From the IMG/VR virus record IMGVR_UViG_3300006072_000005: a stretch of DNA of 64,000 bases; one strand, 5' to 3'. The position numbers and the translations under genes were made by a program. Source of the stretch: an uncultured virus (IMG/VR IMGVR_UViG_3300006072_000005). Lineage: Duplodnaviria; Heunggongvirae; Uroviricota; Caudoviricetes. Below the pieces are notes generated by a model. The model was not told the origin of the DNA and ran no database searches. It saw nothing but the letters and a program-made list of their open reading frames with translations. Below, piece by piece: positions 3,900 to 25,700 of this stretch (positions are counted from its first letter, which is position 1; each line of letters begins with the position of its first letter).

Positions 3900-3945
3900 A
3901 GTATTATTTATTTAAATAATTAACTACGTACATAATGAATAGTCA

Positions 3946-3975
3946 ATAAAAAGCCTACGTGTGTAGGCATTTTTA
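3946..3975 (-). terminator. Rho-independent terminator after the tail tube gene
   Basis: Minus strand GCCTAC-ACAC-GTAGGC followed by TTTTTATT. Confidence 0.7.
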
Positions 3976-4611
3976 TTATGAACCTAATGCGTTATGACCG
4001 CTACTTGCACCTGATTTTTGTACAGATTTAGGAGCACCAATTGCAGGAACTGGATCAGTTTGTACTGCATTATCAAACTGGATTGTTAGATCAATCATTA
4101 CAGGACCTTGCTCGCTGTATTTTAAATCTTGCCAGTTAGTTTGTTGTACATAACATCCATACAATTCCCAAGTTTCTAAAACGTTAGGAACATTAGAACC
4201 GTTACCGCCGTCTAACATTTCAATACGCATTGTAAACTTGTAATCACCAGCCGCTGCCGCTGAACTTTGTTCAAAAAAGTCAAACTGTTTCTGGTTCTGC
4301 TCACCGACCAATTTGCTAACTGCACCAGTAACATCATCACGCAATTTAACTGTAAGTGCTTTCCACTTAGGTTTGCCAGCATAATGAATAATACTGTTGT
4401 AGATATCGATCTTTTGATCTTCAAATTCAACTTGTGGACGAGCCGCTTCAGCAACTTGTTTTGTTAGTTCTGTTGTTGGAGTACTTACACCAAAGTTTTC
4501 AAAGTTAATTCTAAAACGATACTTCAACTTAGGCATTAGCATGCCCTGTGAAGCCGCACTTTGATCACTTGCTAGTGGTACTGTAAAATTTGATAGTGCC
4601 GCGATTGCCAT
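3976..4611 (-). CDS. gp19: Tail tube protein (T4 gp19-like)
   Basis: PKLKYRFR, HYAGKPKW..LTVKLRDD, ETWELYGC and IDLTIQFDNA; directly downstream of the sheath gene. Confidence 0.9.
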   Translation of the reverse strand: MAIAALSNFTVPLASDQSAASQGMLMPKLKYRFRINFENFGVSTPTTELTKQVAEAARPQVEFEDQKIDIYNSIIHYAGKPKWKALTVKLRDDVTGAVSKLVGEQNQKQFDFFEQSSAAAAGDYKFTMRIEMLDGGNGSNVPNVLETWELYGCYVQQTNWQDLKYSEQGPVMIDLTIQFDNAVQTDPVPAIGAPKSVQKSGASSGHNALGS

Positions 4612-4622
4612 TTAATTTCTCC

Positions 4623-7600
4623 TTATTTGCCACTTAAACCGGCAATTGCGCCAGTATTTTCAAGACGTAATGGAATGTAGATGAATTCCACAGACTTAAC
4701 TGGTTCGATTGCAATGTCAACATACAACTCATTAGCATCAATTCTGCTTGGAGTATTGTTTGAAGTGTCGCATACAACAATATAATCGTACAGGGCACGT
4801 TCAGCTGTTAGGTTAAGCAACAATTTTTCAATTTCTTGTTTAATTTCGTTACGTGTAATTGTATCATTTGGTTCAAATACATATGGTTTAGAAATGGCGT
4901 TCAACTGGTAACGTAAGTAAATTACTAAACGTGCTACATTGATACGATTTAAACTGCTTGCGACTAAACTACGAGTATATTGTCCGTATGCTACAAGTCC
5001 AACACCGCCAATGTATGTTATTGGGTTAACTTGTATTGTGGCTAATGTGTTACGTTGCCCAGTATTCAATGCGATAGGATTAAACACACCAGTTTGTGCA
5101 GTTACATAACCTACACTACTTGCATTTGTTACACCACCACGACGTACACCTGCTGGTGCAAACCAAGGATAAGCAACATTATCGCTTAATGCGATTGTAC
5201 GCAACATGATATGACTTGGAGGAACAACGATGTCATTACCGTATAAGTCTGTTGTATAGCCCCATGGATAATATACACCAGTATTTGCATCTGTTGTAAC
5301 TAGACCAACTTCGCCATCGCCTGTTGCATTATTTGTATTATTACCCCAGTTACTTAAACTTGTTGCATCGTTTGGTAAACGTGCAGGAGCATCTGCTACA
5401 ATAAATGATAGTAATCCACGACCAGTATTTAAATTAACCAATGCGGATGTTGTTTCTAAATATCCTGGGCAACTTAATAAGTTAAATGTAACACTATCTT
5501 CGTTACGAATTTGTTGATTAGCGTTAATTGTAGCATTTAAAGCCGCTACAACAACAGCACGTTGAGCTTTACGACCAAACACGCCCACACCTAAATAATC
5601 ATTAGCGGCATCTGTTACCCAACGATCTGGATAATAGTAAGTCATTACTGGGTTACCGGTAACGCTTGTATTATAGGCTTGTGTGTTTACATAACCTGAA
5701 ACGTACTTTTTAACGTTAAAACTGCTACGGCGTAGATTATACAACAAAGTTCCCTTTGGATATAATTGTGCGTTTGGAGCGTCAAAGTCAACAAAGTCGC
5801 TTGATAATAATAATGCAATCGAATCCAGTGTATCAGCACCAGTTTTTACAGTATTTGCATTTAATGTTTCATCGCTCCAACGTGCATCGGCAAATATGAT
5901 ACCATTACTAGTTGTGTGATCTGTGTTGTTAATCAATACCCATGCTTTTGTTAAGAAATTCCAACGATAAATTGTTGGCCATGCTTCTAAATTACTTGAA
6001 TTAATCCACAAATCACCATGTTGTAGTACACCGCCTGTACTGTTAGTAGTTGGTTGTGTTGAACTAATGATTGGACCGTTAGCATCAGTTTGTGTATAAT
6101 TATTTGTATATCCAACACCCTGGTTAACAACAACTTTACCAGCAGTTGAAGTATAACCTCTCCAATGTGTACCATCATTGATTAAAATATCTACATCAGT
6201 GATTGAACTATTATACCATAATTGTCCGTTAACTGGTAATGTTGAAGGTGCTGTTGCACTAGGTGTAACCAATGCAGTACCGCTACTATTGGCTGCCGCC
6301 CATGCAGTAATGATATAGTAGTTTGCTGTTCCGGATGGATCAGCATAAAATTCATTATTAGTTCCTACAGTAAATATTTTACCAATAGGTAAATTAGTAC
6401 CGTCTTGGATTCTAATGTCACCGCCTTGCGTATGGGTAATTGTAACTTGATTTGTACTTGTTACAGTTGCCACAACGTTTGCCAATGGAACTACTGCTGT
6501 GTTAATTGCGGCTGCCAATGCGTTTGCATCAGAGCTAGCACTGCCAGTTGTTGTAAAACTAACTGTTACATAACTTGGTAATGTTGCTGAACCAACTTGG
6601 CTAGATGAAAGAGCAAATGTAAATGAGCTTGAACCAAATGTACTATTTGTTATAATAGCACTAGTTGAACTTGTTATACCTGTTGATAAACGTTGATAAA
6701 TTTTGTAATTTACATAAGTTGGATTTGTGATTTCATCATCGTTATATTTTACATATACTTGTCCAACTGGAATATTAATACCGCCGCCTGTTGGATCTAA
6801 TGTTGCCATTGCCGCTTGATTGCTTGCAAATAACTGACCTACAGCTTGACGAATCCAACTTGCTGTTGTTGAATTATATAGTTCGATGTCAAAATTAGCA
6901 CCTTGGTTTACTGGAGTTGTTTTAATCCAGATAGAACCAGTTGGGTAACCGTTAACACTACCTGAATTTGTATAAGAACCATAGTTAGGAACTTGATAGT
7001 GTGGAGCAATAGTCACTGTAGGAGCATAGTATGTCCCAGCGGCAATAATTTTGTTTGTACTGGTTAGTGTACCACTTAATACAATGTTAGCACCTGTTGA
7101 ATATAAATTCAAATAACCGTTGATTACACTTGCTGTTACACCAGATACATGTGAACCTAATGCTGTTACTAATCCAGCGTATGTTGTTGCACCAGTTACT
7201 GTGTATCCATTAACAATTAATGTATCGCTACTACTAACTGTTGCGGCTGTGGATGCTACTGTACTTGTAGCAGTTGGCATACTTGCGGCCCAAGCTGTTG
7301 AACCAACTTGTACCCATGTGCCAGCTGTGCTTGCGGCGGCGGATGCTCCACCTGTGCCGTCGTTGGCAGTATTATATTGTTTGTACCATAACTGAGCTAG
7401 TGTTGTAGCTGTTACAACTGCATAACTACCGACAGCACCAAAACTTGGATTTGGAGCAAAAGTTCCAGTATTGTATAGACCAGATCCTGCGTTAATTACT
7501 GCTGGATTTTGTACTACAAAACTTTGACCGTTAGTTGCTGTAACTGCACTTGCGTTCCATTGGAAAACACCAAAACTTGTTGTTGCAGTATCCCACCAGT

Positions 7601-8006
7601 ATGTACCATTTGATGGAAGTCCTACTGGAACTGATGCTGAACCAATTAATTGACTTGTATCAACATTGGCACGAACAACGTATGCTTGACTGCTAACACC
7701 TAAGAAACTGTAAGCGGCTTGTAGACCGTATTCATTAATTTCGCTTGCATTGATAGGATTGTTGCTAGCATCTGTTTGAAAGTATGGTACACCAAATGTT
7801 GCGCCTAAGTCTGCTTGACTTGTCAACAGGTATACGTTTCCAGCATTTGCCGCTAGTGTGCCTGGAGCAATACCTGTTCCAGCTGAATTCATTTTGTTTG
7901 CTTGAGTAGCAACTACGATAAGGGGTACGGTACCTGGTGCAGAAGGCGTGTAGAACGATTCGTTAACTACGGTTACGCTAATTCCAGGTGAACTTAATTG
8001 AGCCAT
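4623..8006 (-). CDS. gp18: Tail sheath protein (T4 gp18-like), ~1127 aa with large insertions
   Basis: Start revised to ATG 8006 (MAQLSSPGISVTVVNES), with GGAGA SD and an upstream ATAAATA; C-terminal YPWFAPAGVRRG, LNRINVARL, VFEPND, CDTSNNTP and IEPVKSVEFIYI. Confidence 0.95.
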   Translation of the reverse strand: MAQLSSPGISVTVVNESFYTPSAPGTVPLIVVATQANKMNSAGTGIAPGTLAANAGNVYLLTSQADLGATFGVPYFQTDASNNPINASEINEYGLQAAYSFLGVSSQAYVVRANVDTSQLIGSASVPVGLPSNGTYWWDTATTSFGVFQWNASAVTATNGQSFVVQNPAVINAGSGLYNTGTFAPNPSFGAVGSYAVVTATTLAQLWYKQYNTANDGTGGASAAASTAGTWVQVGSTAWAASMPTATSTVASTAATVSSSDTLIVNGYTVTGATTYAGLVTALGSHVSGVTASVINGYLNLYSTGANIVLSGTLTSTNKIIAAGTYYAPTVTIAPHYQVPNYGSYTNSGSVNGYPTGSIWIKTTPVNQGANFDIELYNSTTASWIRQAVGQLFASNQAAMATLDPTGGGINIPVGQVYVKYNDDEITNPTYVNYKIYQRLSTGITSSTSAIITNSTFGSSSFTFALSSSQVGSATLPSYVTVSFTTTGSASSDANALAAAINTAVVPLANVVATVTSTNQVTITHTQGGDIRIQDGTNLPIGKIFTVGTNNEFYADPSGTANYYIITAWAAANSSGTALVTPSATAPSTLPVNGQLWYNSSITDVDILINDGTHWRGYTSTAGKVVVNQGVGYTNNYTQTDANGPIISSTQPTTNSTGGVLQHGDLWINSSNLEAWPTIYRWNFLTKAWVLINNTDHTTSNGIIFADARWSDETLNANTVKTGADTLDSIALLLSSDFVDFDAPNAQLYPKGTLLYNLRRSSFNVKKYVSGYVNTQAYNTSVTGNPVMTYYYPDRWVTDAANDYLGVGVFGRKAQRAVVVAALNATINANQQIRNEDSVTFNLLSCPGYLETTSALVNLNTGRGLLSFIVADAPARLPNDATSLSNWGNNTNNATGDGEVGLVTTDANTGVYYPWGYTTDLYGNDIVVPPSHIMLRTIALSDNVAYPWFAPAGVRRGGVTNASSVGYVTAQTGVFNPIALNTGQRNTLATIQVNPITYIGGVGLVAYGQYTRSLVASSLNRINVARLVIYLRYQLNAISKPYVFEPNDTITRNEIKQEIEKLLLNLTAERALYDYIVVCDTSNNTPSRIDANELYVDIAIEPVKSVEFIYIPLRLENTGAIAGLSGK

Positions 8007-8038
8007 TGTGTTATCTCCATGAGTACATGTTCTTAATG

Positions 8039-8106
8039 TATTTATGGCATTTTGGTAAATCAATGCTTATATAAGCCTACAAAAAGGCTCTAAAAAGGCT
8101 TAAATA
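8039..8106. promoter_or_regulatory. Divergent T4-late-type (TAAATA) promoters for the sheath gene and the HNH-like gene
   Basis: Minus-strand CATAAATA at ~8039-8046 and plus-strand TAAATA at 8101-8106; direct repeat AAAAAGGCT at 8081-8089 and 8092-8100 between them. Confidence 0.6.
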
Positions 8107-8110
8107 AAAT

Positions 8111-8437
8111 ATGAGACCATTATGTTCATGCGGAAGGGCACCGGTAGCCATCAATTATTATAAAAACGGACAGACTTATTACAGAAGCCTGTGCGGTAAC
8201 TGCCTACGAGGTGTCAAACTGCCTAGATGGCAGCAGGCTGGATACAAACTAAAACATACTTGCGACAAATGCGGGTTTAAAAGCCCGCACAAAGAAGTAT
8301 TTAATGTGTTCCACATTGATGGAAATTTAGATAATTGTAAACAAACTAACTTAAAGACTGTGTGCGCCAATTGTCAACGGGTTCTTCATCGAGAAGGTGT
8401 TCAATGGCGGCAAGGGGATCTTGTTCCGGATTTATGA
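8111..8437 (+). CDS. Zn-finger / HNH-like small protein
   Basis: Cys clusters CSC, CGNC, CDKC and CANC, plus HIDGNLDN...NLKTVCANC (HNH-like). Confidence 0.7.
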   Translation: MRPLCSCGRAPVAINYYKNGQTYYRSLCGNCLRGVKLPRWQQAGYKLKHTCDKCGFKSPHKEVFNVFHIDGNLDNCKQTNLKTVCANCQRVLHREGVQWRQGDLVPDL

Positions 8438-11405: not shown

Positions 11406-12868
11406 TGCAGTGGTTTTATGACGGACAAGTAAGAAGATATTTGACACAAACTATACGAGTGCTCAGTAATTTTGTGGTCAAATATGGAGATGGAACACTA
11501 CATCAAGTACCCGTAATGTACGGCGATGCAGATCGTCAAGTGGCCAGCATCATACGTCAAAACAGTGAAAATGCTGTTAATAGTATTCCACGTATAAGTG
11601 TGTATGTAACTGGTTTAGAACTAGATAGAAATAGGTTAGCTGATCAAACTTATGTAGGCAAGTTGCATTTTCGCGAAAGAGATATTAACGGAAATAATTA
11701 TACCGGAAATCAAGGACGTAATTATACAGTTGAACGCTTGATGCCTACTCCTTTTCAATTAAAGATGAAATGCGATATTTGGACTAGCAGTACTGATCAA
11801 AAATTACAAATATTAGAACAAATACTAGTGTTATTCAACCCTAGTTTAGAATTGCAAACCACAGACAACTATATTGACTGGACTAGTTTATCAGTTCTTA
11901 ATTTAGGAGATATCGTTTGGGATAGTAGACAAGTTCCTGTCGGCAATGATACTCCTATTGATATAGCAACATTAAGTTTAGATTCTCCTATCTGGATTAG
12001 TCCTCCAGTTAAGGTCAAACATCTTGGTGTTATTACAAAAATTATTACAAGTGTCTATGGGTCCGAAGGAACTTATCCGTCTGGGTATGTTGAAGGATTA
12101 GGAATAGATCCTGCACTACAATCTGATGGCACTAGTCCGTCATTTAGCAATTTGCTTGCTACTGAAAATGTTACAGTTACAGGATTTCCTATAGCAGTAT
12201 ACGACGGCCAGGCAACTTTGTTAGAATCAGGAGGAGGTGTTAATCCTCCAGAACCGACGTTGACTATTCCTACTCCGATCAGTAATCCTCAAAGTTGGGA
12301 AAGTGTATTCAATTTATTCCCCGGAAAATATGTTGCAGGTTCTAGTATGTTGTATTTGTTGCAACCAAATGGGACTTACGTTATAGGTACTATTGCTATT
12401 AATCCTACAAATCCTGCAATTTTACAAATTAATTATAATACAGATACATTGACTAGCAATACTGGAATTGATAGTAACGGATTTTTAAGTACAGATGTAA
12501 AAGATTACAATGCCGCTACTAGTTATCGACCAAACAGCCCTGGTACTTTTGATGCCATTATTAATCCTCAAACTTATACACCTAACAACCCAATAGCAGG
12601 TACACGTTATCTAATTATTGAAGATATAGGCAACACGACTAATACAAATCCTGCTGTCGTATGGGGCAGTTTAGTAGCTAATGCTAATGACATTATAGAA
12701 TATACTGGTTCAGTATGGCAAGTTATTTTTCATGCCGCTCTAGAATCAGACACTATGGTATGGCAAACGAATATATACACTGGAGTTCAGTACTTGTGGA
12801 ACGGGGTTGCATGGGTCAAGAGCTTTGAAGGTGAATATGGTGTGGGCCAATGGAAAATAATATTGTAA
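11405..12868 (+). CDS. gp15: Tail sheath stabilizer / tail terminator (T4 gp15-like) with C-terminal extension
   Basis: WFYDGQVRRY, VPVMYG, IPRIS, MPTPF and QILEQILVLFNP. Confidence 0.88.
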   Translation: MQWFYDGQVRRYLTQTIRVLSNFVVKYGDGTLHQVPVMYGDADRQVASIIRQNSENAVNSIPRISVYVTGLELDRNRLADQTYVGKLHFRERDINGNNYTGNQGRNYTVERLMPTPFQLKMKCDIWTSSTDQKLQILEQILVLFNPSLELQTTDNYIDWTSLSVLNLGDIVWDSRQVPVGNDTPIDIATLSLDSPIWISPPVKVKHLGVITKIITSVYGSEGTYPSGYVEGLGIDPALQSDGTSPSFSNLLATENVTVTGFPIAVYDGQATLLESGGGVNPPEPTLTIPTPISNPQSWESVFNLFPGKYVAGSSMLYLLQPNGTYVIGTIAINPTNPAILQINYNTDTLTSNTGIDSNGFLSTDVKDYNAATSYRPNSPGTFDAIINPQTYTPNNPIAGTRYLIIEDIGNTTNTNPAVVWGSLVANANDIIEYTGSVWQVIFHAALESDTMVWQTNIYTGVQYLWNGVAWVKSFEGEYGVGQWKIIL

Positions 12869-13299
12869 AAGATAGAATAGTTTGTAGTGGTGCATTATTT
12901 TATGCTAAATCTACACAACGATTTTTATTACTTCAAAAAAGTCACGGTAAACACGAAGGCACGTGGGGATTAGTCGGCGGGACAAACATCATAGGTGAAA
13001 CACCTTGGCAAGGTCTTCAACGCGAAATTAAAGAAGAAATAGGTGCAGTGCCTAAAATAATTAAAACAATCCCATTAGAAACATTTGTCAGTAACGATAA
13101 AGTATTTAATTTTCATACTTATTTGTGTGTAATAGATAACGAGTTTGTTCCTGTCTTGAGTGACGAACACATTGGTTGGGCTTGGACTACTGTAGATCGC
13201 ACACCTAAACCCTTACATCAAGGACTACGTAATAGTTTTAACAGTAAAACTATTCGTACCAAATTACAAACTATATTTGACTTAGTTGATCTAGTTTAA
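12850..13299 (+). CDS. NUDIX hydrolase
   Basis: Nudix box GGTNIIGETPWQGLQREIKEEIG; EHIGWAW. Confidence 0.9.
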   Translation: MENNIVKDRIVCSGALFYAKSTQRFLLLQKSHGKHEGTWGLVGGTNIIGETPWQGLQREIKEEIGAVPKIIKTIPLETFVSNDKVFNFHTYLCVIDNEFVPVLSDEHIGWAWTTVDRTPKPLHQGLRNSFNSKTIRTKLQTIFDLVDLV

Positions 13300-14473
13300 T
13301 ATCAAAGCCTTCGATATATTCTTTCATCAAGGCTGAATTGTGTGCCCAATACTGCTCGTATTCTCCAGTCTGCTGACACAATCTTACATATTTTTGAAAT
13401 CTTTCCGATGTTTGTAAACGTTCTTTAGCCAGTGCTGTGACTGTATTCCAGAAAGGCGTATCTTTTTTGCAAGGACCTACATAGTTTAGTGCAACTAAAT
13501 TCAACATATCTTCCATACTTTTAAGATAAGAAGTATTAATTCCTCTATTAAAATGCGGTGTTTGTAAATTAGTACCTTTAATTAATGTTTCAATAAACTC
13601 TACAGACAAATTTATATAAAAATGTAACGGCAATGCTTGTGCAGGTTCAAGAAAATATAGTCTGTTACCCATGGATAATATGCGTCCATTCATTGCTTCT
13701 TTTTTATAATACTGTCTCCAGCTAAATTTTCTTAATTTACTAGCATCAATATTTTTTAATTTAGAAAATTTTTCAATCGCTTCTTCCTGAGTTGTTATAT
13801 TTTTATTATATAGATAACCAAAGGCTTTACGATGAGTTAATGGTACTCCAAACATCCAGCCGTCGTCATGTGGATATGCACTTGTTAAATCTTCGTTATA
13901 CTCTTTAAAGTCAGGAAATAGTATTACTGAGTTAACTGTTTCAAATTTTGGAAATTCGTATAGTCCACTATCCATTTCTTCGGCCGACGGTGATCCTCTA
14001 CAATCGATGATATAGTCAAATTTATGTTGCACTCCGTCGACTAATATCGATACGTGAGTATGATCTTGTGTTATGTCTGAGACATTACCGTGTATTTGAA
14101 AAAAATTATCGTATAATTTATCAAGTTTGTTGATAACAAATCCGCTAAATTTTTCACTGTTGACATGCAATCCTGTATGTCCATGCCTTACTAGGAAATT
14201 TTTATCATTAATATCTTCCCAGTAGTAACGAGTACCCCAGCGAAGGGTACCATCGAACTCTTTTAATTCTTCAGTAACAGAAAAATCAATAGCATGATAA
14301 AGTAAACTAGGCATTATAGGGCTAGTACTTTCGCCCACAGTAGTTACAGGAATGTCAGGATTGTATATGCAATACACATCTATGTGTTTGCATCTATGGA
14401 ATTTAAATTTATCAAAAATTGCAAGTAATGAAACGGCGCTGGCGGTACCACTACCTATAATGCCTATTTTCAT
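13271..14473 (-). CDS. Flavin-dependent enzyme of the tryptophan halogenase family (divergent)
   Basis: Rossmann motif IGIIGSGTAS, VGEST, IDCRG, GWMFGVPL (cf. WxWxIP), FGYLY and GNRLYFLEP. Confidence 0.8.
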   Translation of the reverse strand: MKIGIIGSGTASAVSLLAIFDKFKFHRCKHIDVYCIYNPDIPVTTVGESTSPIMPSLLYHAIDFSVTEELKEFDGTLRWGTRYYWEDINDKNFLVRHGHTGLHVNSEKFSGFVINKLDKLYDNFFQIHGNVSDITQDHTHVSILVDGVQHKFDYIIDCRGSPSAEEMDSGLYEFPKFETVNSVILFPDFKEYNEDLTSAYPHDDGWMFGVPLTHRKAFGYLYNKNITTQEEAIEKFSKLKNIDASKLRKFSWRQYYKKEAMNGRILSMGNRLYFLEPAQALPLHFYINLSVEFIETLIKGTNLQTPHFNRGINTSYLKSMEDMLNLVALNYVGPCKKDTPFWNTVTALAKERLQTSERFQKYVRLCQQTGEYEQYWAHNSALMKEYIEGFDIKLDQLSQI

Positions 14474-14480
14474 AAAAACC

Positions 14481-15476
14481 TTATTGTACGGTTATAACGC
14501 AGTCGTCTGATCCTGACCAATATTGAAAACCACAACTTACTGTGATAGTGTCACCTGGAACAAGATGTGTTGCAATTAAACGAACAGTTCCTACACCGTT
14601 GACTGTTTGTACTTGTTGTTTATTCAAGTGACCTGCCGTAGTTTTTAAATATATAGTTGCATTGTGATCCGTTATAGGCAATCCATGCTCAGAGCTTGTT
14701 TTTGCTGGGGGATTTAAATCGGTAGGAGTTCCTAAGTAAAACGGTAAATCGACATAGCCGTCTGGGCTGACAGTAGCAGTCTTATTTGTAAAATAAACTT
14801 TTGGCATAGTATATACGATTCTGCCAAGCTCGTCGGTGATTACATTTGTGAATTGTTCGCCTGACGATATTCTTACTAGGCCAGGATCGCTATCGCCCAA
14901 CGCAACCATCATGTTCCAATCTGATGGATTCATTTCTGCAAACGGAATAGAAATTAAAATCATAGGACTATTCTTTTGCAAAGACATTGCCCTAACTGGA
15001 TTTTTCTTATGTAGTTGTGAATTGGCTACTAAATTGTATAATGGGATACCTGTTCTTGTATTCAAAGCAGTTTGTTGAACGTATCTTACATTTAAATTTC
15101 TTACAGTAACTTGGTCAGCTGGGTGAGTGATTGCAAAAATAGCATGATCTGAAAATCCCTCATTGTTGGTAATATCTGTCCAATTTATTTCTCCAGAAAT
15201 TCCTGCTGTTACACCAGGATAGACTCCTGAAGTTTGACTATAAACTCTATGTGTTTCTGTTTCCCATGCAAATTCGTCAGCAGGGCTTGGATATCTAACT
15301 CCGGCTACTTTTCTAGCAGTAACGGTATTATCTGCTAAACTAGCCCATTCCAACTGCAATTCTGATTTTTTATAGGCATCAAATACTGTCCACTGAAATC
15401 CAGTGTCAGTAAATTTTATATCTAGTGCTATCAACTGCGAATGTTGAAACTGTATTAAATTTTGAGTTAAATTCAT
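14481..15476 (-). CDS. Hypothetical protein of the radical SAM cluster, with a beta-rich / Ig-like C-terminus
   Basis: 331 aa, 13 nt after the rSAM stop; AGGA SD; GATAAATA late motif at 15504-15511. Confidence 0.75.
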   Translation of the reverse strand: MNLTQNLIQFQHSQLIALDIKFTDTGFQWTVFDAYKKSELQLEWASLADNTVTARKVAGVRYPSPADEFAWETETHRVYSQTSGVYPGVTAGISGEINWTDITNNEGFSDHAIFAITHPADQVTVRNLNVRYVQQTALNTRTGIPLYNLVANSQLHKKNPVRAMSLQKNSPMILISIPFAEMNPSDWNMMVALGDSDPGLVRISSGEQFTNVITDELGRIVYTMPKVYFTNKTATVSPDGYVDLPFYLGTPTDLNPPAKTSSEHGLPITDHNATIYLKTTAGHLNKQQVQTVNGVGTVRLIATHLVPGDTITVSCGFQYWSGSDDCVITVQ

Positions 15477-15489
15477 GATCTGCTATTCC

Positions 15490-16956
15490 TTATTCCTGTT
15501 CAGTATTTATCAAGGAACTCTTACCGTAAACTTCGACATTGTCGATTACAGCAACTTTTTCACTGACAATCTTAATAGGTATTATTTTTTTCTTTTCTTC
15601 TTCGTGTTTGAATACACCGCCCCAGATATCTTGGCGCTCTAATGGTAATCCTTTGCCCTTAATATGGTAAGGAACATAACCACCTGTTATTTTTTCAATA
15701 CTTGCGGCAAACAATGGTACGTTATCGCTATAGGCGTTATTGCAACTTGTAGTCCAGAATTCATCTGAAAGGAACATACATGCACCTTTACAAATATGCA
15801 ACACTGGACAACTTGGACATTCTGCACGATTACTCCAGTGTGTACTAGTAGTAATTTTTACGTCCTCGATCTCAGTAATCTTACCACCTAAGTGAGGTTC
15901 TCCGTTTTTGTTAATTTCGATAGCACTGACATTTTGGCAAGTAATTACATTGCCGTTTAAATCAAATGCAACGGTTCTTTCGTCATCCATGCCGCATTTT
16001 TGACCTAAATAGTCTGCTTGCTGATGGGTCAATACTGATTCTGTGAAATTATCAACTTTTTGTAATATGTTGCCAAAGCCGATTTCACCGTTAGATCCGT
16101 AAATTTCTCCGAACGCGATTTTTCTAAATTCGAAATGATCTTGTTTAGTTTGTAAACTGTGTTGTAGGCCATCGGCATCATATGCATCTACAAAGGTACC
16201 TTCACCTAAACTAACATTGGGATCATTTGTAAAATTAATAAAATAATCAAATATAGCTTTACGACTAAGATTTTGTCTGTTTAACATTGAGTTAAAACTG
16301 ATGCGATTTAAAGGACGCAAAATCTGGTATAAATCTAAAATAATTTCACGTTTCTTAGGATCTGCAAATGGATCTGGTCCGCGTACATGTTGTCCTGGCC
16401 CGTCATGACTGATAGCTACATGGAATTCCATACTGTATAGCCAAGCACAGATTTCTTCTGTTAAAATACTACCATTAGTAATAATACTAAAAACTGGTTT
16501 CTTTCTCCAATCTTTAAAAAATTCTGCTACTGCTTCGGCCAGGGGTTTTAATGTCTTCCAGTAAACTAAAGGTTCACCTCCCCAAAATTCAACTCGTAAA
16601 CCGTCTTCTTCGTTAAACTCTAAAGTCTTAAACATTTCCATAAAATTTTCAATGTCTTTAGCATTAGTTTCACGTGGGCGTTCCACAAATTTTTGACTGC
16701 AATAATCACAACTATAATTACAACTTAATCCTAGTTGAATTTTTACGTGATTAGTACTGCGAGATTTAATTAAAGGACGATCTTTATCAAATGGTTTGTA
16801 TGGTACTCGATTTTCAAAATTATTTGCATAAGCATCGGGATACTCATAGACGAATCCTGTTTCATCGCTTAAGACATTTTTTTCGTTGTCATAGAAGAAC
16901 GTTCTTAGATCAGGTGGGTTTGATCCAAACTTTTCTGTCAGTATTTCAAAAATCAT
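15490..16956 (-). CDS. Radical SAM / SPASM-domain peptide or protein maturase
   Basis: CNYSCDYC (CxxxCxxC), FWGGEPL, ITNG and ISHDG; C-terminal seven-Cys pattern C-x18-C...CxxC-x5-C-x3-C-x11-C. Confidence 0.93.
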   Translation of the reverse strand: MIFEILTEKFGSNPPDLRTFFYDNEKNVLSDETGFVYEYPDAYANNFENRVPYKPFDKDRPLIKSRSTNHVKIQLGLSCNYSCDYCSQKFVERPRETNAKDIENFMEMFKTLEFNEEDGLRVEFWGGEPLVYWKTLKPLAEAVAEFFKDWRKKPVFSIITNGSILTEEICAWLYSMEFHVAISHDGPGQHVRGPDPFADPKKREIILDLYQILRPLNRISFNSMLNRQNLSRKAIFDYFINFTNDPNVSLGEGTFVDAYDADGLQHSLQTKQDHFEFRKIAFGEIYGSNGEIGFGNILQKVDNFTESVLTHQQADYLGQKCGMDDERTVAFDLNGNVITCQNVSAIEINKNGEPHLGGKITEIEDVKITTSTHWSNRAECPSCPVLHICKGACMFLSDEFWTTSCNNAYSDNVPLFAASIEKITGGYVPYHIKGKGLPLERQDIWGGVFKHEEEKKKIIPIKIVSEKVAVIDNVEVYGKSSLINTEQE

Positions 16957-16974
16957 AAGATTCCTTGTGGTATA

Positions 16975-17376
16975 TTAGCAGTTACAGTTACAGTTACAAT
17001 TACAGTTACAATTACAGTTATAATATACGTTGGTATTAATGTTACAGTTGTAAGTGCAGTTGCAATTACAGTTGTTTTGTAACCAGTTTTGACCATCGCA
17101 ATTTGTGCAATTGATGTTATTACAATTATAACAGTTTGTACAGCAAATGTTACCACAATTACAATTATTTGGACAATTTCCGTTGTTGCAATTACCCTTG
17201 TTATTTGAACGATAGTATGCTCTGTTACGCATTTCGTTCATAGTTGGGTAACTATCACGTTGTCCTGGAATTACATATCCATTAAGATTACTCAAATTGC
17301 TGTATGGACTGCTGTTAGGCAGTCCAATTTCGCCGTCAATTTGACTAATATAAATAGGACTTGAAGGAGTTGTCAT
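16975..17376 (-). CDS. Asn-Cys-rich small protein; putative rSAM substrate and possible tail-fibre tip protein
   Basis: 133 aa; residues 1-61 have no Cys, residues 62-133 have 21 Cys (19 as NC) and end in (NC)7; AAGGA SD; 3 nt after the tail fibre stop. Confidence 0.85.
   Translation of the reverse strand: MTTPSSPIYISQIDGEIGLPNSSPYSNLSNLNGYVIPGQRDSYPTMNEMRNRAYYRSNNKGNCNNGNCPNNCNCGNICCTNCYNCNNINCTNCDGQNWLQNNCNCNCTYNCNINTNVYYNCNCNCNCNCNCNC
16978..17019 (-). repeat. Hexamer tandem repeat (AAYTGY)7 encoding (Asn-Cys)7
   Basis: Minus strand AAC TGT AAT TGT AAC TGT AAT TGT AAC TGT AAC TGT AAC TGC then TAA; variation is synonymous only. Confidence 0.9.
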
Positions 17377-17379
17377 CGT

Positions 17380-19350
17380 TTATTCCTTGTTAATCTGTGC
17401 TTTTAATTCTTTAACTTGGCTTGACAATTCCTTAACTGCTTCAATCACTAATGGTAATAACTTTTCGTACTGAACTGTCATGTACTTAGCGTCGATTGGA
17501 GCTGGTTTGATAATTTCTGGCAGGATTGCATTAACTTCTTGAGCAGAAACTCCAACTTCACGTTGAACAGTATATCCCAAATCCTGAGCAGTTTGGTTAG
17601 CTTCAAAGTAAAAACCATTTAATGTTTCTAACTTAGCAAGAGCATCTTCAATTTTGCCCAAACGTGTCTTTAATCTGTCATCTGAGTAGTAAGCAACAAT
17701 GTTGTTTGCCGCATAAATTGTACCACCACCACCGTTAGTGTTAGTACCAACGCCTAGCGAACTAAAATAACCATATGTACTACCAGCATTCATTGTACCG
17801 CCGCCAGTTAAGTTAAACGCTGTTACGCTATTCATTGTGAAAGTTGTAATACCGTTAAAAGTAACTGTACCACCAGACTGTCCAACTGTAAAGTTAGTGT
17901 TGCTGATTGTAGCAGTACCACCGCTAGCACCAATGTTAACTGCTGAACTTGCTCCAGTAAACAAGTTACCTGTACCAGCGTTGGTTGCAATGTTAACAGT
18001 ACCAGTAGCTTGACCGTTGGTCAATAAGTTAAAGTTAACGTTGCTACCACTTTGAATACCAAATGTATTAGAAGTATTGATATACAACCCTTCTGAACTA
18101 ACCCAAGCTGGGTTACCGCCACCGCTTGTTGGACCTAATGTACTGCTTGCCCATTGTAATGTGTGATTACTAGTTCCATATAATAATATGCCGCCGCCGT
18201 TGGCAAATGTATCAGCACTACCTGGAGTAATAGCTGTAATTGTACCAGCTACAGGAGTTGTGCCGCCTGTTACTGTTACCTGAATACTAGTTCCACTTAC
18301 AATGTTGCTTATTACATAACTTGTACCGCCGCCGCCTAAACTACCTGTACCGTTAGTTGCACTAACAGCTTGACCGTTTACCAAGTTGGTAGTGTTGGGC
18401 ATACCGGTAATAGTTGCAATCCAAGGACTGTAGTTAACGTTGCTTACAGTGAATGTTAAGTTGTTAGGACTATTAGTACCACCAAGTAAGTTACCACCAA
18501 TAGTAATTGTATCATTGATTGCATAGTTACTTCCTGGATTAACCAATGTAATTGTAGTTACACCAGTATAAGTTGTACCTGACCCAGTTGTAGTGATGTT
18601 AAAAGTTGCACCCGATCCGCTACCACTTGTAGCAAATTGTCCAACACCACTGTATGTACCTGCACCAGTTACTTTTGTACCAGTAATACTTGTAAATGTT
18701 GTACTACCGCCTAACGCACCACCGATAGTTGTAACAGTACCGCCACCATAAGTAACTGGATTAACATATCCAATTTCAATATTTTTATCTTCTGTACGTA
18801 CTGAACTAGAGTTAAGAACAACTGTTCCGCCTTTTACTAACAATTGATTGTTAATAGTAGTTGTACCAGTGCTAGAACCAATATTGATACTAGTTGCCGC
18901 GCCTGCAAAGTTAACTGTCTGAGTATTTGTATTGTAGATATTGGTGGTACCAGTATTGGTACTAATCAAATCAGCTGAAAAAGTTCCGTTAATACCAAAT
19001 TGATTACCGCCTGGGAATGTAATTATACTATAGTTAGTACCATCAGATCCAATAATACAACTAGATCCTGCTGGCATGGCCAATAAGTTTGTACTAGAAC
19101 CACCTGGTCCGTTAAACACCGGAGAACTAGGACTACCAGCAATATATCCGCTAGGAGCAGAAAGTGTAACAACACCACTAGTGTTGTTAAAATAACTTTG
19201 CGACTGTCCTAAAAATAATGTTGGTCCTGGGATAACCACCGTGTACGGTGCAGATCCTTGAAATTCTGTGTAACCACCTTGTGCAGGTGTTAACAGAGTT
19301 TGTGCTCCGGAAACAATTTCTGTTGCCAGCGATGTATTATAACGTGCCAT
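17380..19350 (-). CDS. Tail fibre protein with C-terminal intramolecular chaperone (peptidase S74 / ICA)
   Basis: Gly/Thr-rich body; YYSDDRLK cleavage motif, VGVSAQEV..ILPE and MTVQYEKLLPLVIEAVKEL coiled coil. Confidence 0.9.
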   Translation of the reverse strand: MARYNTSLATEIVSGAQTLLTPAQGGYTEFQGSAPYTVVIPGPTLFLGQSQSYFNNTSGVVTLSAPSGYIAGSPSSPVFNGPGGSSTNLLAMPAGSSCIIGSDGTNYSIITFPGGNQFGINGTFSADLISTNTGTTNIYNTNTQTVNFAGAATSINIGSSTGTTTINNQLLVKGGTVVLNSSSVRTEDKNIEIGYVNPVTYGGGTVTTIGGALGGSTTFTSITGTKVTGAGTYSGVGQFATSGSGSGATFNITTTGSGTTYTGVTTITLVNPGSNYAINDTITIGGNLLGGTNSPNNLTFTVSNVNYSPWIATITGMPNTTNLVNGQAVSATNGTGSLGGGGTSYVISNIVSGTSIQVTVTGGTTPVAGTITAITPGSADTFANGGGILLYGTSNHTLQWASSTLGPTSGGGNPAWVSSEGLYINTSNTFGIQSGSNVNFNLLTNGQATGTVNIATNAGTGNLFTGASSAVNIGASGGTATISNTNFTVGQSGGTVTFNGITTFTMNSVTAFNLTGGGTMNAGSTYGYFSSLGVGTNTNGGGGTIYAANNIVAYYSDDRLKTRLGKIEDALAKLETLNGFYFEANQTAQDLGYTVQREVGVSAQEVNAILPEIIKPAPIDAKYMTVQYEKLLPLVIEAVKELSSQVKELKAQINKE

Positions 19351-19372: not shown

Positions 19373-19711
19373 TTATGATGTCGATGTTTCAATTCCGTAA
19401 ACGTTAACGTTTACACCAGCAACGCTTGAGCTAGCAACAATGTTTGCACCAGCTGCCATTACAATTCCTGTACGTTCAAACACACCATAACCAACTACTG
19501 TTGTTAAGTATTCATATGCTTCACTGGCAACCTGAGATGCCGCAGTACTTGCACCTATATATAATCTAATAGTTGCCGCAGAAGCTGTAGTGTTTGTAAA
19601 TGAAATGTTATAAACACCGTAGTAACCGGTTGGTACTGTATAGATTAACGAATAAGTAGACTGTGTACCTGCGTTCAATTGTGTCGTTGCTTTATTTCCT
19701 GATCCTGCCAT
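19373..19711 (-). CDS. Small beta-rich virion or fibre-associated protein (paralogue of 43384-43716 and 48293-48631)
   Basis: 112 aa; IYTVP...ISFTNTTASAATIRLY...IVMAAGANIVA...VNVYGIE pattern. Confidence 0.7.
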   Translation of the reverse strand: MAGSGNKATTQLNAGTQSTYSLIYTVPTGYYGVYNISFTNTTASAATIRLYIGASTAASQVASEAYEYLTTVVGYGVFERTGIVMAAGANIVASSSVAGVNVNVYGIETSTS

Positions 19712-19731: not shown

Positions 19732-22700
19732 TTATCTTGATAAGAAGAATACGGTAGCTACAGGAGCACCGTCAATTCCGCCTGTGAACAGCATCTTACT
19801 GCTAACATAAATTTGATTACCATTTAGGTTACTAATAGTATTACCAGCTATGTATATCTGTCCTGCCGTTAGTGTATTTACGTTCAAACTACTTGATCCG
19901 CCACCAATTTGGGCTGTGATGTAAGATTTAATAGCTTTTTGTGTTGGTAAAATATTGTCACTATTAGCAGTAAAGTACGGATCTGTACTAAATTGCGTAA
20001 TCGTTGCACTATTTACACCTAAACTTACTGAACCTAGTGTCAAACTCTGTAATCCAGCTAAGTTAAATGCGTTGGCATTCAATGTAGCTGTACCAGTCGC
20101 TTGTTGAACTCCAAACAAGTTACCAACGTTAAAGTTACCGTCTTGGTCAGTTGATGTAAAGAATACGCGACCACCAATATTTGGATATGTTTGGTTAGCC
20201 TGAATTGCATTTGCATCAGTAACGTTTGGATAGTTAGTTTGTGTTTGGTTACCTGAGCCAACATACAAGAAGTCATGTCCAGTTAAACGTGTTTGACTGT
20301 ATTTCAATCTTGTAGTAATCAATGCACCGTTCGGTGGAGCAAGATAAGTTGTTAGACTTGGACTTACTTGGAATGTAGCAGTATAGTTACCTGCTTGTCC
20401 TAATTGATTACTTGTAGCAACTAGTTTGTACCATGCGTTAGAAATACTGCTGAACTGTACGTTAGCACCTGCGGCAGGTAATGCATATAAATTAGCAACG
20501 TTAATAAATGCTGTATTCTGGTAGATATCAGCATATCCATCGCCAGTAATACTTGCTGTTGCTGTTGCATTTCCAGCACCACGACATGGGAAACTTGGGT
20601 TACCTAACACACCATCACCTGTACGTACACGAGTTGGTGCTTTGTTAACTTGGTTAGGATCGGTAATAGTTAATGTTGGTCCTGTTGTATATTGCATACC
20701 AGTTGGAGTACTTGTTGTTAATGTAACACTAGTACCAATTGTTGCCAATGCAGATGAAGTTGCAACTTGGAATGTAGTAGATTGAATTGTTGATCCAATT
20801 ACATAGTAAGTTGTTTGTGTGCTTAATCCGCCAGAGCTTACAGTATTGAATTCAATTGGTTGTAGATTATACATGTTTTCTGTTTGATCTACAGTAATTA
20901 AATTCAATGGTCCAACTGTACCAGCTACTGATATGCTACTTGCAGTACCTGCATTAAATGGACTACCATAATAAGTTGAACTGATAGTTAGTGTTGTACC
21001 TGAACTTGTTACTTGTACATAATAAGTTGTGTTTGCAACTACGTTACCAAACCCAGTAGCAAATGTAATTGGTTGGCCAATTGTTAAATTGGTTGCACCG
21101 ATTGTAATTGAATTTCCAGATACGGCTGTTACGGTAACTGTTGTACCAGCAACATACGTAGTTCCAGTAACAACACCTTTAGCAAATCCACTGCCTGGTT
21201 CAATCATACGTATTTCAGTTAAAGCACCACTAGCTACTTTTGTACGTGCCAACGGTGTTGCACCGGTATGAATACTTGCCGCTACTGTACCAGATTGGTT
21301 ACTTGCGGTTACCCATAGTGGTGTGTAACCAGTTGTTGTAACTAATGGATTACCAAATGATGGAGTGATCCAACTTGCGTATGTTGGCAATGTTTGCTGT
21401 GTCCAGTTGATACCGTCCCAACTTGTTGCCGCGATGTTTGTACCAATTGTACTTGTCCATGCACCTGTGTCATTAACTAATGTAATTACTGGAGATAAAG
21501 TACTACTTGCACTTACAGTAATCTGATTGCCTGCAATACTAGCAATATAGTATGTATTACCTGAAATCAAGTTACCAAATAATGAACCTGCTTGTGCAGT
21601 CCAAGATCCGCCAGCGTTAGTAACTACCGCATTGGTTCCACCATAAATTGTACTTACTGATATTAGTGTACTTCCAACAATTTCAGTAATGAAATATGTC
21701 GAGCCGGATGTTAATCCACCAAATGTTGCACCTTCAGTTACTGACCATGATCCATTTCCGTTTGTTACAGTTAAGTTAGAACCGCCATAAGTTGTACTTA
21801 CAGTGATTGTACCGTTTACACCCGGAGTTGGAATGCTTGTAACGTAGTATGTTGTACCGCTTGTAATACTACCAAAAGCGGCACCTGCTACAAATGTCCA
21901 TACACCTGTACCGTTAGCAATAGTTACCGATGAACCATTGTATACTGTACTAATTGTAATATTACTGCCTGCTACACTAGTGATATAGAATGTAGTACTA
22001 GCTGTTAAATTACCGCCGCCTAATGTCGCACCAGCTGTTACGCTAACACTTTGACCAGTAGTTGTTACTAAAGTCAAATCACTTGTGGCACCATACACAG
22101 TACCTACAGCAAGCTGGTTAGTACTAATAGTTTTAGTAATATAATATGTGTTACCTGAAATCAAGTTACCTACGTTAGTAGCAACTGTAAATGTTTCACC
22201 AATTAACATACCGCTGTTAGAGTTAACAGTGATAATGTTTAATGTACCTGTAATACTTGTACTAGTTTGTGTAAATCCTGAACTTGTACTTACGTTCCAA
22301 GTACTACCGTTACCACTACCAGATATATTTGATATAATATATGTTCCAGCAGGAATACTACCACCTGAAATAACAGCTCCTGGAGTGATTGTACCTGCAC
22401 TCAAAGTACCAACAGTTAATATACTGTTAGTAATACTAGAACTTGATAATGTAAATGATCCGTTAGTTGTAGCAGTTAATGTAGTTGTTTGACTAACTGC
22501 TGTGAACACAATAGTTTCACCTTGTACTAAACCAGTAGTTGAGTTCAATGTAATTGTGTTACCAGTACTAGATGTAGAAGTAATATTACCAGTTTGGGTC
22601 ACTGCTGTAAACACGACTGGAGCACCTACCGCCATACCAACAGTTGTACCAACTGTTAACAAGTTACCAGTAGCGGCTGTTGTAGTCAATGTTGTGCTAA

Positions 22701-25700
22701 CAATATTACTCGTAAACACTATTGGTTCGCCCACTGACATACCGGCTGTGTTTCCAACTGTAATTGTATTTTGTGTACCAGTGATTGCACCAGCTGCCGC
22801 TGTTTGACTTGGAGTAATTGTCCAGCTTTGTCCGCCAATTGTCTGAGCACTTGAAATAGTTAATGCACTAGTATTCAATGTGTATGTACCAGTTCCGCCT
22901 GCTGTATAGAAGTTATAAGTACCAGTAGCATTTGACCCAGCAATAGTTGCCGCCGCGCCTCCTGCGACTCCCACGGCTAATGGAACTGTTGTACTACCAG
23001 GAACATATGAACTTGCTACTACTGTTCCTGATGGGATGCCTGTACCAATAATTAATTGGCCTGCTACGATACCTGTTCCAGTATTAACAACAAAAGAACT
23101 TGCACCAATAGTACCACCAGATGCCCAACTTGGACTTGCTACTGCACTTGCAGAGCTTGTATTTTGATATGCAATATAAGCAGTCAATCCGCCTGTTATT
23201 GTTGTAGATGGAACTAATGAGCCAGTGTTAGCTACCCATGCATTACCGGTTACAGTAACACTGGTTACTAAACTAGTAGTGCTAATAAAGTATTGTCCAG
23301 CAGTACCAGGAATATAACCGTTGTATGTTCCGCCACCGATTGTTGCATATAATGGCTGACTTAATGTAATTGTTGTGTTGGTTGCAACTGAAACAGCAAC
23401 TACATAAGTGTTATAGAACAAACTACCGCCAGTAATTAATTGTCCTACAGCGAATCCAGTCGATGAACCAGATATTACTAGTGTAGTAGTACCAATTGTT
23501 CCGCTTACTCCTGTACCTGTACCTACCGCACTACTTGTAGTACTGATTTGTCCAGTAATATATGTACCAGCGGTAATTGTACCAGTACCGCCTGTACTAG
23601 CCAATACCATACCTGGTATTAATGTATTATTGTTGATAGTACCAGTTGTTGTAAGTACATATGGTGTGCCTGTCAATGCAGTTGAACTAACTACTGTTGC
23701 TACGCTGACAATCCACTGACCGGTTGAGCTAGTTGGAGTTGTTGATGAACCGTATGGTGCAACAATAGTTGTGCCAGCTGTAACACCTGTACCACTTAGA
23801 ATATAACCTGGTTGAATACCAACACCGCTTGGTGTTGAAGACACAGTTAAAATACCTTGTCCGTTAACTATAGAAACACTACCGTTGAATGTAACTACTG
23901 TGCTTGGAGATGCTGTTCCAGTAATTGTGCTACCTGAAGTAGTTGGATTTGAAACAATATAAGTAGCACCAGTAGTTATATTTGTACCGCTCAACTGACT
24001 ACCTGTTGTAATTACACCAGTAGTTGTACCTGCTGGTACAAATACACCAGTTTGTACACCACTTGGATAGTACGTGTTCCAAATGTATGAACTTGTAGTG
24101 TTAAATTGTGCGCCAGTTAATGCCATTCCAGGTTGTACACTATAAGCACTGGTTGTACCAGTACCAGTAACTGTACCGCCAATGGTCAATATAGATCCTG
24201 CAATCGTTGACGATGTTGAATTAAATGTATTGCTACCAGTAATGTAAGTTCCTGATGTCACATTTGAACCAGTCAAATACATACCTAGTGCAAACGGACC
24301 TAAACCAACTGGTGCAGTTAATGTTGTACCTGCGTTGCCTGCAATACCGTTAGAAATAAACGATGTTGACAATCCAATTGCTGTTGCATTAATTGTCTGA
24401 CTAGCCACTGTAGTTTCAGTCACTGCTGTTGGAACAATAGTATTTCCTACGTTCAAACCGGCTGTACTGCTTAATGTAATCAAGTTACCACTTGAAGTAG
24501 TAGCTGTCATTGTAGGAGTTGGTCCTGTTGCTGTTGCAAAGAACTGTCCTTCTCCGTATGAGATTCCCCAGTTTTGTGCTAATGGTAAGTATGTACCGTT
24601 ATTTGCTACACTTGAGTACCAAGTTACACCACCGTTGTTGCTGTATGCAACAATATTGCTACCTGCGGCTACTGCAACAAAACGTCCGTTACCATAAGTT
24701 ACGCTAGACCAGTTAGCAACTGACGGTAATGCACCACCAGTAGTCCATGTTAAACCGTTAGTACTGTAAGCTGTTGATGTACTGTTAGTTGCGATAGCTA
24801 CAAACATACCTGTAGTTGTTGCACTAGATCCTGGTCCAGTCCAGCCAAATGCCACAGATGTAAACGCTTGTGTTGCACCGCTTGGAGCTGTTCTGCCAGT
24901 CCATGTAACACCGTCTGGACTAGATGTAATAATAGCACTGGCATTAGATGTTGTTCCAGTGTAACCAACTGCAACATAAATTCCGTTACCATAAGTTAAA
25001 CTGTTAAATCCAGCGGATGGAAGTGCGTTACCAGAAGTCCAAGATGATCCTAAATTAGCTACTGTACTATAAGCTGTTGCTGTAGTTGTTGTAGAAATTG
25101 CAACAAATTTAGCACTAGTATCTAATATTGTAATAGTAGGAGTTGCAGTATAACCGTAACCAATGTTAGTAATTGTGTAACTGCTGACACCGTAATCTGT
25201 CAATGTTGGAGTTGCAGTTGCGGCAGTACCTACGAATGTCAATGACACACCATATGTTCCTGCAGATCCTGTACCTGTTGTAAACGTTGGAGCAGTTGAT
25301 GAAAATGTTCCGCTCGATGTTGCTAGGTAATAGTTTGTAGCTTGAGTTGCACCACTATAATAGTAATAGTATGAGCCACTTGTTGCACTCGAACTTCCAC
25401 TCCAAACAGTTCCACTAAATGGAGCACTGATTGTTACGCTAACGTTTCCGCTATTGAAATAATTTTTACCCCAAGTGATAGGAGTAATCGCAGTAATAGC
25501 ACTAGTTACAACTGTTACAGTCGGTGCTGAAGTATATCCAGAACCATTAACTGTAATAATAACTGATTGAATTACTCCGTTAAGAACAACTGCTGTTCCT
25601 TGGGCACCGGTACCGCCACCACCTGTAAACAATAATGATGGAGCAGTATTATAGTTGTAACCGCCGTTAATTACGTTGACTCCAACTACTTGTCCTAAAC

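Follow-up and report, generated by a model that had tools for sequence, protein, structure and literature searches.

The viral record IMGVR_UViG_3300006072_000005, from an uncultured member of the Caudoviricetes, carries a five-gene cluster that we read, with a probability of roughly 0.55, as a maturation cassette for a tail-fiber tip, in which a radical S-adenosylmethionine (rSAM) enzyme cross-links a fiber-tip protein. The stretch analyzed (the window) is 64,000 nucleotides long, and its source record is 153.7 kb and estimated to be 42% complete. Five co-oriented open reading frames (ORFs) lie on the minus strand from position 19350 to position 13271, separated by gaps of 3, 18, 13, and 7 nt. 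From first to last, they encode a 656-amino-acid (aa) tail fiber with a C-terminal S74 intramolecular chaperone (17380 to 19350), a 133-aa Asn/Cys-rich protein (16975 to 17376), a 488-aa rSAM/SPASM enzyme (15490 to 16956), a conserved 331-aa accessory protein (14481 to 15476), and a 400-aa flavoprotein of the Trp-halogenase family (13271 to 14473). The order, shared orientation, and gaps given in an earlier note on this DNA were reproduced when the ORF coordinates were checked in the window.

In the reading we favor, the 133-aa protein would be a small fiber-type substrate with a docking N-domain, a core rich in Cys and Asn, and the (NC)6 tail. In the cytoplasm, it would be modified by the rSAM/SPASM enzyme, which has two auxiliary [4Fe-4S] clusters besides its SAM cluster. 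On the model of PapB, QhpD, CteB, and CrpC, hydrogen would most likely be taken from an acceptor carbon and that carbon joined to a Cys sulfur; repeated joining would yield a ladder of redox-independent thioether cross-links. The product would be placed at the distal end of the S74 fiber, which would trim off its own chaperone. The 331-aa protein, which has an immunoglobulin (Ig)-like domain, would serve as a conserved accessory (chaperone/adaptor or tip partner), and the flavoprotein would contribute another tailoring step that is not halogenation.

A Cys-tract partner for the rSAM gene

The pairing of the rSAM gene with a gene for a Cys-tract protein goes beyond chance. With the window's rSAM protein and a seven-sequence alignment as queries, at least 542 viral contig stretches and at least 188 genome contigs were matched in all, and 165 loci were retrieved (85 from viral contigs and 80 from genome contigs). 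With Ralstonia phage RSP15 and Achromobacter phage JWF, the set grew to 167 loci, of which 166 contained an rSAM match. A Cys-tract partner gene was found in 144/166 loci, and 20 of the other 22 are truncated on the relevant side. When the enzymes were clustered at 90% identity, the partner was present in 96/101 clusters. As background, the CxCxC pattern occurred in 20/1742 opposite-strand ORFs. The earlier note had held that rSAM homologs occurring mostly without an NC-rich ORF would tell against it; most of them have one. Of the two kinds of neighbor whose consistency it proposed to check, NC-rich ORFs and S74 fibers, the former are found beside the rSAM gene almost without exception and the latter accompany the module in a minority of loci, as described below.

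The loci fall into two groups. Group 1 (90 loci) comprises those with an rSAM protein at least 54% identical to that of the window, and the same Cys/Asn-core protein is encoded in 84/90 of them (78 recognized by a core hidden Markov model [HMM], 5 by pattern, and 1 by eye). The six loci lacking it are all missing one flank. The partner usually lies within about 45 nt of the rSAM gene, either upstream or downstream; in five loci (labeled L024, L036, L054, L068, and L123) the distance is 0.7 to 1.4 kb. Group 2 (76 loci, <52% identity) includes JWF, RSP15, and prophages, and its contigs are mostly from freshwater Burkholderiales. Here, a same-strand CxCxC ORF was present in 60/76 loci, lying 0.6 to 3.1 kb upstream of the rSAM gene in 58, with the tract at or near the C terminus. 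In the two others (L134 and L150), the sole CxCxC ORF is downstream and probably spurious. Of the 16 group 2 loci without such an ORF, 14 have <2.1 kb of upstream sequence. One Comamonadaceae contig (L104) looks like a decayed prophage, in which the rSAM and lysis genes are kept and the upstream fiber genes are replaced by unrelated DNA.

The window's partner is compositionally extreme. Its 21 Cys residues begin at residue 63, and 19/21 are preceded by Asn, in agreement with the Cys-free N-terminal half and 21-Cys core described in the earlier note. Together, Cys and Asn account for 66% of the final 80 residues, and none of the 123 frames of ≥120 aa in the 153.7-kb record exceeds its Cys fraction of 0.157 (median, 0.008). 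The protein belongs to no family in Pfam, PHROGs, or NCBIfam, and neither it nor its ∼300-aa relatives L083 and L047 gave a Pfam match at E values up to 1. A tblastn search of 50,697 phage records also returned no match, for which the low-complexity filter may be the cause.

The group 1 partner always has three parts, which in the window are an N-domain (residues 1 to 56), a core (residues 57 to about 120), and the (NC)6 tail that forms the C terminus. The N-domain starts M-T-L-P-x-S-G, the core contains invariant Cys, Asn, Gly, and Tyr columns, and the tail is an alternating (xC)n tract in which x is N, D, A, or sometimes another residue such as Q, L, or V. In alignment A1, 11 Cys and 12 Asn/Asp positions of the core are invariant. 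An N-domain HMM gave 95 matches in the frames of the loci and none in frames with fewer than eight Cys; this domain is found only together with the core. The two are equally well conserved, and the N-domain probably docks the 133-aa protein. The window's protein lacks the terminal Trp that many relatives carry.

The tail is encoded by a hexanucleotide tandem repeat (16979 to 17020, minus strand; period 6, 7 copies, 88% matches), and another frame of the same DNA is open for 67 aa. Both facts would fit an NC-rich ORF that is not a gene, being simply a repeat that is open by chance. Conservation rules this out: the protein retains its conservation in relatives that share as little as 38% identity, outside the repeat there are invariant columns of Cys, Asn, Gly, and Tyr, and at least 196 longer homologs exist, so that we regard the probability of a chance frame as negligible. 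Because relatives carry shorter (NC)n tails (four NC units in L008 and three in L011), in-frame slippage of the 6-nt microsatellite could tune tail length.

The tract at the ends of fiber proteins

In the window, the (xC)n tract is the natural end of the protein. In several relatives, the tract is followed by a recognizable domain. An S74 chaperone starts directly after it at a Ser-Asp motif in L026, L085, L087, P0014, and P0100, and in L026, L085, P0014, and P0100 the SDDRLK motif of the window's fiber directly follows the tract. In five group 1 proteins (P0050, P0080, P0108, P0115, and P0119), a Hint domain begins, at its first Cys, right after the tract, and a Hint domain likewise directly follows the tract in group 2 (JWF gp028, L093, and L113). 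S74 and Hint domains cut themselves off; thus, the mature protein should end at the tract wherever the C-terminal domain is recognizable, and the tract is predicted to mark the mature C terminus. P0115 (466 aa) has two tandem Hint domains after its tract. Relatives of ∼295 aa (L023 to L091, e.g., L079 at 7440 to 8333, and P0002 to P0013) share a conserved domain of ∼170 aa that follows ...NCNCS and starts K-I-I-C. This domain has no Pfam family, and an Atlas search returned only unnamed viral clusters; since it takes the place of S74 or Hint, it could represent a third type of domain for removal or anchoring.

The fiber gene of the window was identified as such by the earlier note, and the assignment stands. 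Its S74 domain (PF13884; residues 556 to 613, nucleotides 17512 to 17685, minus strand) scores 34.4 bits against a cutoff of 22 (E = 2.7e-8) and starts at the SDDRLK motif visible in the translation, and the protein matches PHROG tail-fiber and baseplate families (phrog_8215, 7.8e-28; phrog_1699, 6e-22). An S74 fiber lies just upstream of, or is fused to, the module in 27/166 loci. The association with S74 is thus genuine without being a rule. In group 2, which includes the JWF-like prophages, the tract ends proteins with tail-fiber domains. PHROG tail-fiber families were matched by 12 of the 18 tract-ending proteins submitted, a set that includes the 402-aa ORF of L123; this candidate fiber fusion was set aside as a probably miscalled frame, since the S74 match within it belongs to a different reading frame. 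In both JWF and RSP15, the rSAM gene is inside the tail-fiber module, and the RSP15 fiber ends in a shorter N-C-Q-C tract. The group 2 cassettes are located between host-specificity/tail genes and lysis genes.

S74 chaperones serve trimeric fibers and spikes, which points to a parallel trimeric form of the module. This geometry is shared by an alternative in which the tract is a metal-binding needle, with Fe or Zn held by the Cys of three parallel chains and the rSAM enzyme serving some purpose other than cross-linking of the tract. The HxH repeats at the tip of T4 gp37 bind iron, strict alternation would place every Cys on the same strand face, the S74 fusions imply parallel trimers, and the variable partners in the tail (N, D, and A) fit a role for Cys only. 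Such a needle would, however, leave unexplained both the dedicated rSAM/SPASM enzyme found with the tract in 96/101 clusters and the invariant Asn of the core, and no metal-binding family was matched in Pfam. We consider it unlikely.

In a second alternative, the 133-aa protein would serve as precursor for a released product of the kind known as ribosomally made, post-translationally modified peptides (RiPPs), such as a bacteriocin, a signal, or a host-manipulating peptide, with the N-terminal half as leader. A Cys-free N-terminal half joined to a Cys-rich C-terminal half, next to an rSAM/SPASM enzyme, is consistent with this view, as are the many window-clade loci whose neighbors are small unknown genes and oxygenases instead of an adjacent fiber gene. 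Against it, the same N-domain and core occur in fusions with the S74 trimer chaperone or with Hint domains, the tract of the other rSAM clade ends tail-fiber-domain proteins that have no such N-domain, and few leaders that are discarded would show the conservation seen in this N-domain. The nine proteins scanned with Pfam included no leader protease or exporter, and neither a C39 peptidase (PF03412) nor an ABC transporter (PF00005) was matched in the 153.7-kb record, in itself an estimated 42% of a genome; the earlier note's statement that both functions are missing holds within that scope. A released peptide is, in our assessment, quite unlikely. The earlier note's preference for a virion component over a secreted peptide gains from the position of the tract at fiber ends and before self-cleaving domains of fiber type and loses from the low frequency of adjacent S74 fibers; as judged from sequence, the tract-bearing protein probably resides at the fiber tip or elsewhere in the virion.

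The enzyme and the chemistry it may perform

The 488-aa enzyme scores above the cutoffs for Radical_SAM (PF04055 in Pfam; 34.8 bits versus 29.5) and SPASM (TIGR04085 in NCBIfam; residues 321 to 397, 30.6 bits versus 27) and matches phrog_1802 (E = 7e-62). The CX3CX2C motif that binds the radical SAM cluster (C79-x3-C83-x2-C86; residues 79 to 86, nucleotides 16699 to 16722, minus strand) and the seven Cys of the SPASM region (residues 321 to 405, nucleotides 15742 to 15996, minus strand) give ten Cys that are invariant among seven homologs, down to 45% identity (alignment A2). The SPASM Cys are arranged as C321-x13-G-x4-C340, C380-x2-C383-x5-C389-x3-C393, and C405, and the full seven-Cys pattern recorded in the earlier note is thereby upheld. 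No PqqD or RiPP recognition element family was detected in the enzyme at E values up to 0.01, and only ∼70 residues precede the rSAM core. It is very likely that the enzyme acts on the 133-aa protein.

In NCBIfam, the enzyme matches peptide maturases best (PapB, 1.2e-20; QhpD, 2.7e-19; CcpM, 4.2e-16). The ranthipeptide and SCIFF maturases PapB (NF047865) and CteB (PDB entry 5wgg) are, together with QhpD (TIGR03906), the best curated matches and share the layout of an rSAM domain and a seven-Cys SPASM region; the bond that they form links a Cys sulfur to a carbon in Asp, Glu, or another residue. The window's enzyme scores 4- to 6-fold below the cutoffs of these families. PapB and CteB act on short leader-bearing peptides and QhpD acts on a dehydrogenase subunit, and these systems also differ from the window's cluster in that no leader protease or exporter was found in the latter. 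Streptococcal NxxcB, an rSAM enzyme of a RiPP system, forms a single Cys-to-Asn beta-thioether in the short quorum-regulated peptide NxxcA, and we know of no other precedent for a Cys/Asn pairing like that of this core. The invariant Asn/Asp of the core are about as numerous as its invariant Cys, which would suit Cys-to-Asn or Cys-to-Asp links of the NxxcB or PapB type. On these analogies, thioether chemistry on the 133-aa protein is a possibility to which we give slightly less than an even chance.

For substrate size, the nearest parallel is CrpC of Methanococcus voltae. This SPASM enzyme with three [4Fe-4S] clusters is reported to install several thioethers in CrpA, an adjacent Cys-rich substrate of protein size; CrpC and CrpA are archaeal and nonviral, and CrpA is not a fiber and lacks the Asn-Cys pattern (PMC13692751). 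The window's enzyme reaches only 42 bits against the cutoff of 525 for the CrpC-related NCBIfam model TIGR04463.

Several observations weigh against a thioether-stapled fiber tip. The enzyme falls below the cutoff of all 25 listed equivalog/subfamily models (best, PapB with 74.1 bits versus 340), the only curated model that aligns the whole enzyme is that of the anaerobic sulfatase maturases (TIGR03942; residues 75 to 393, 44.8 bits, E = 8.6e-12), and among solved chains 8vpo, an entry cited in a paper on cyclopropyl synthases, is the nearest in sequence. Taken together, these results leave the chemistry unfixed by sequence. In the tail, x varies among N, D, A, Q, L, and V, and since Ala is tolerated, an acceptor defined by its side chain cannot hold there; links from the tail must reach the backbone or the core. 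The AlphaFold2 (AF2) model of the 133-aa protein, built with 39 aligned relatives, is unusable (mean predicted local distance difference test [pLDDT] score, 43.7). Finally, most window-clade loci have no adjacent fiber gene, and the commonest partner architecture is the ∼295-aa one, whose ∼170-aa C-terminal domain has a hydrophobic end and is not obviously fiber-like.

The TIGR03942 alignment, which includes the SPASM part, and the deposition of the JWF homolog as an anaerobic sulfatase maturase both favor a different activity, namely, conversion of Cys to formylglycine or another Cys-derived group, which would make the tip reactive instead of cross-linked. The score is nevertheless far from the cutoff of 349 bits. 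The sulfatase-type motif is Cys/Ser-x-Pro-x-Arg, and none was seen in the 133-aa protein by eye, no pattern search having been run. We regard this activity as very unlikely and continue to favor cross-linking of a fiber-tip protein.

The position of the 133-aa gene also has a precedent. In the T-even phages (gp37-gp38) and in lambda (stf-tfa), the small gene directly after the distal fiber gene encodes a tip adhesin or chaperone, and no enzyme is involved. The likeness to gp38 is confined to gene position, as the 133-aa protein gave no GP38 or Gp38_N match (PF05268 and PF21721) at E values up to 1. An rSAM/SPASM enzyme with a Cys-rich substrate is known, and what appears to be new is a substrate that is an apparent viral receptor-binding tip. 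We found no paper in the literature on an rSAM enzyme acting on a phage fiber. Passages of a pelagimyophage paper mention rSAM gene cassettes near tail-fiber genes without going further, and in passages of a cyanophage paper an unrelated rSAM gene is described as an antibiotic gene.

More tentatively, at least three phage body plans (T4-like myovirus, Ackermannviridae, and JWF-like siphoviruses/prophages) may enzymatically staple the distal fiber tip via a dedicated rSAM enzyme through Cys-to-Asn or Cys-to-backbone thioethers. If so, virions would bear a RiPP-like adhesin knot, the (xC)n length of which could change by repeat slippage, and a virus receptor-binding organelle would for the first time be seen to receive covalent cross-links from an enzyme. 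Tail-fiber tips decide phage host range and are generally treated as plain polypeptides. If this enzyme family rewires them, predictions of structure and host range from sequence alone would miss a key feature, and AF2 already fails on the 133-aa protein; engineered fibers might need the enzyme for folding, and rSAM "peptide antibiotic" chemistry would extend to virus particles. Recurrence at tail-fiber ends in many phages suggests chemical hardening of the part that contacts the host. The family is large, and because the system is also present in two phages that can be cultivated, JWF and RSP15, the idea is directly testable.

Accessory proteins and genomic surroundings

The 331-aa protein matches no known family, and a profile search recovered 16 proteins, all unnamed and without Pfam domains. 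Homologs occur in 37/166 loci, and RSP15 gp047 was matched at an E value of 6e-10. Their gene follows the rSAM gene in close relatives of the window and directly follows the tract-ending fiber gene in group 2, the latter being the position of a fiber assembly protein or tip partner. From these sequence comparisons, the protein emerges as a conserved third partner of the system. Its AF2 model has a mean pLDDT of 78.3, and residues 224 to 331 (nucleotides 14484 to 14807) are Ig-like, aligning by VIA-align with a glycoside hydrolase family 2 (GH2) Ig-like domain (Z = 11.6; root mean square deviation, 2.2 over 92 residues) and with intimin (Z = 10.5 to 10.7). Both Foldseek and VIA-align matched the C-terminal Ig-like domain and nothing else in the model, a result that barely tests residues 1 to 223. 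In the prophage clade (L110 at 3852 to 5734, L131 at 5129 to 5815, and L001 at 6078 to 6944), one to three genes resembling 2-oxoglutarate-Fe(II) oxygenases (PF13759 and PF13640, near the cutoffs) lie between the 331-aa homolog and the rSAM gene; the window has none of these and has the flavoprotein instead.

The earlier note's placement of the flavoprotein in the halogenase family is well supported (PF04820, Trp_halogenase; E = 1.3e-31, 110 bits versus 21), as is a match to phrog_2928 (5e-60), and the protein aligns with RebH and PrnA (RebH over residues 193 to 346, E = 1.5e-14). Arg78 occupies the position of Lys79 of RebH/PrnA, which we take to be the catalytic Lys, both in the RebH alignment, which is weak in that stretch, and in a 12-sequence alignment of phage homologs; the window's protein is also about 130 aa shorter than these halogenases. 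Arg is found at this site in the window, L008, and L011, whereas Lys is kept in the nine other phage homologs. The same three proteins have replaced both Lys of the T-x-K...I-K-F stretch with Arg, have WMFGVP where relatives have W-x-W-K-I-P, and have Gln for Glu in E-P-L-E; the nine others keep the canonical residues at these altered sites as well. Because Arg aligns with the catalytic Lys, the flavoprotein is probably not a halogenase, and in this subgroup the halogenase fold seems to have been turned to a different purpose.

The cluster is surrounded by T4-like tail genes, including those for the gp15 tail sheath stabilizer, a virion structural protein, and giant fiber-like ORFs. Just upstream lies a 112-aa fiber-like protein (19373 to 19711, minus strand; phrog_11338 tail fiber, E = 2.2e-5) that is present in nine loci and kept together with the cluster in close relatives. 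A DNA search with the whole cluster against the 50,697 phage records found no match. Motif scans gave chance-level counts of sigma-70 promoters (34 versus 29.3 expected) and terminators (4 versus 4.4), and the T4 late-promoter word TATAAATA had 3 matches versus 8.9 expected, so that a late promoter is unsupported.

Two giant ORFs lie directly upstream, at 19732 to 34404 (4890 aa) and 34439 to 42976 (2845 aa). The larger combines four CBM_5_12 carbohydrate-binding modules (E = 4.8e-22) with a long fiber-like sequence rich in Thr, Ser, Gly, and Ala. At the other end of the cluster, the flavoprotein gene (minus strand) and a NUDIX gene (12850 to 13299, plus strand) converge, their 3' ends overlapping by 29 nt (13271 to 13299).

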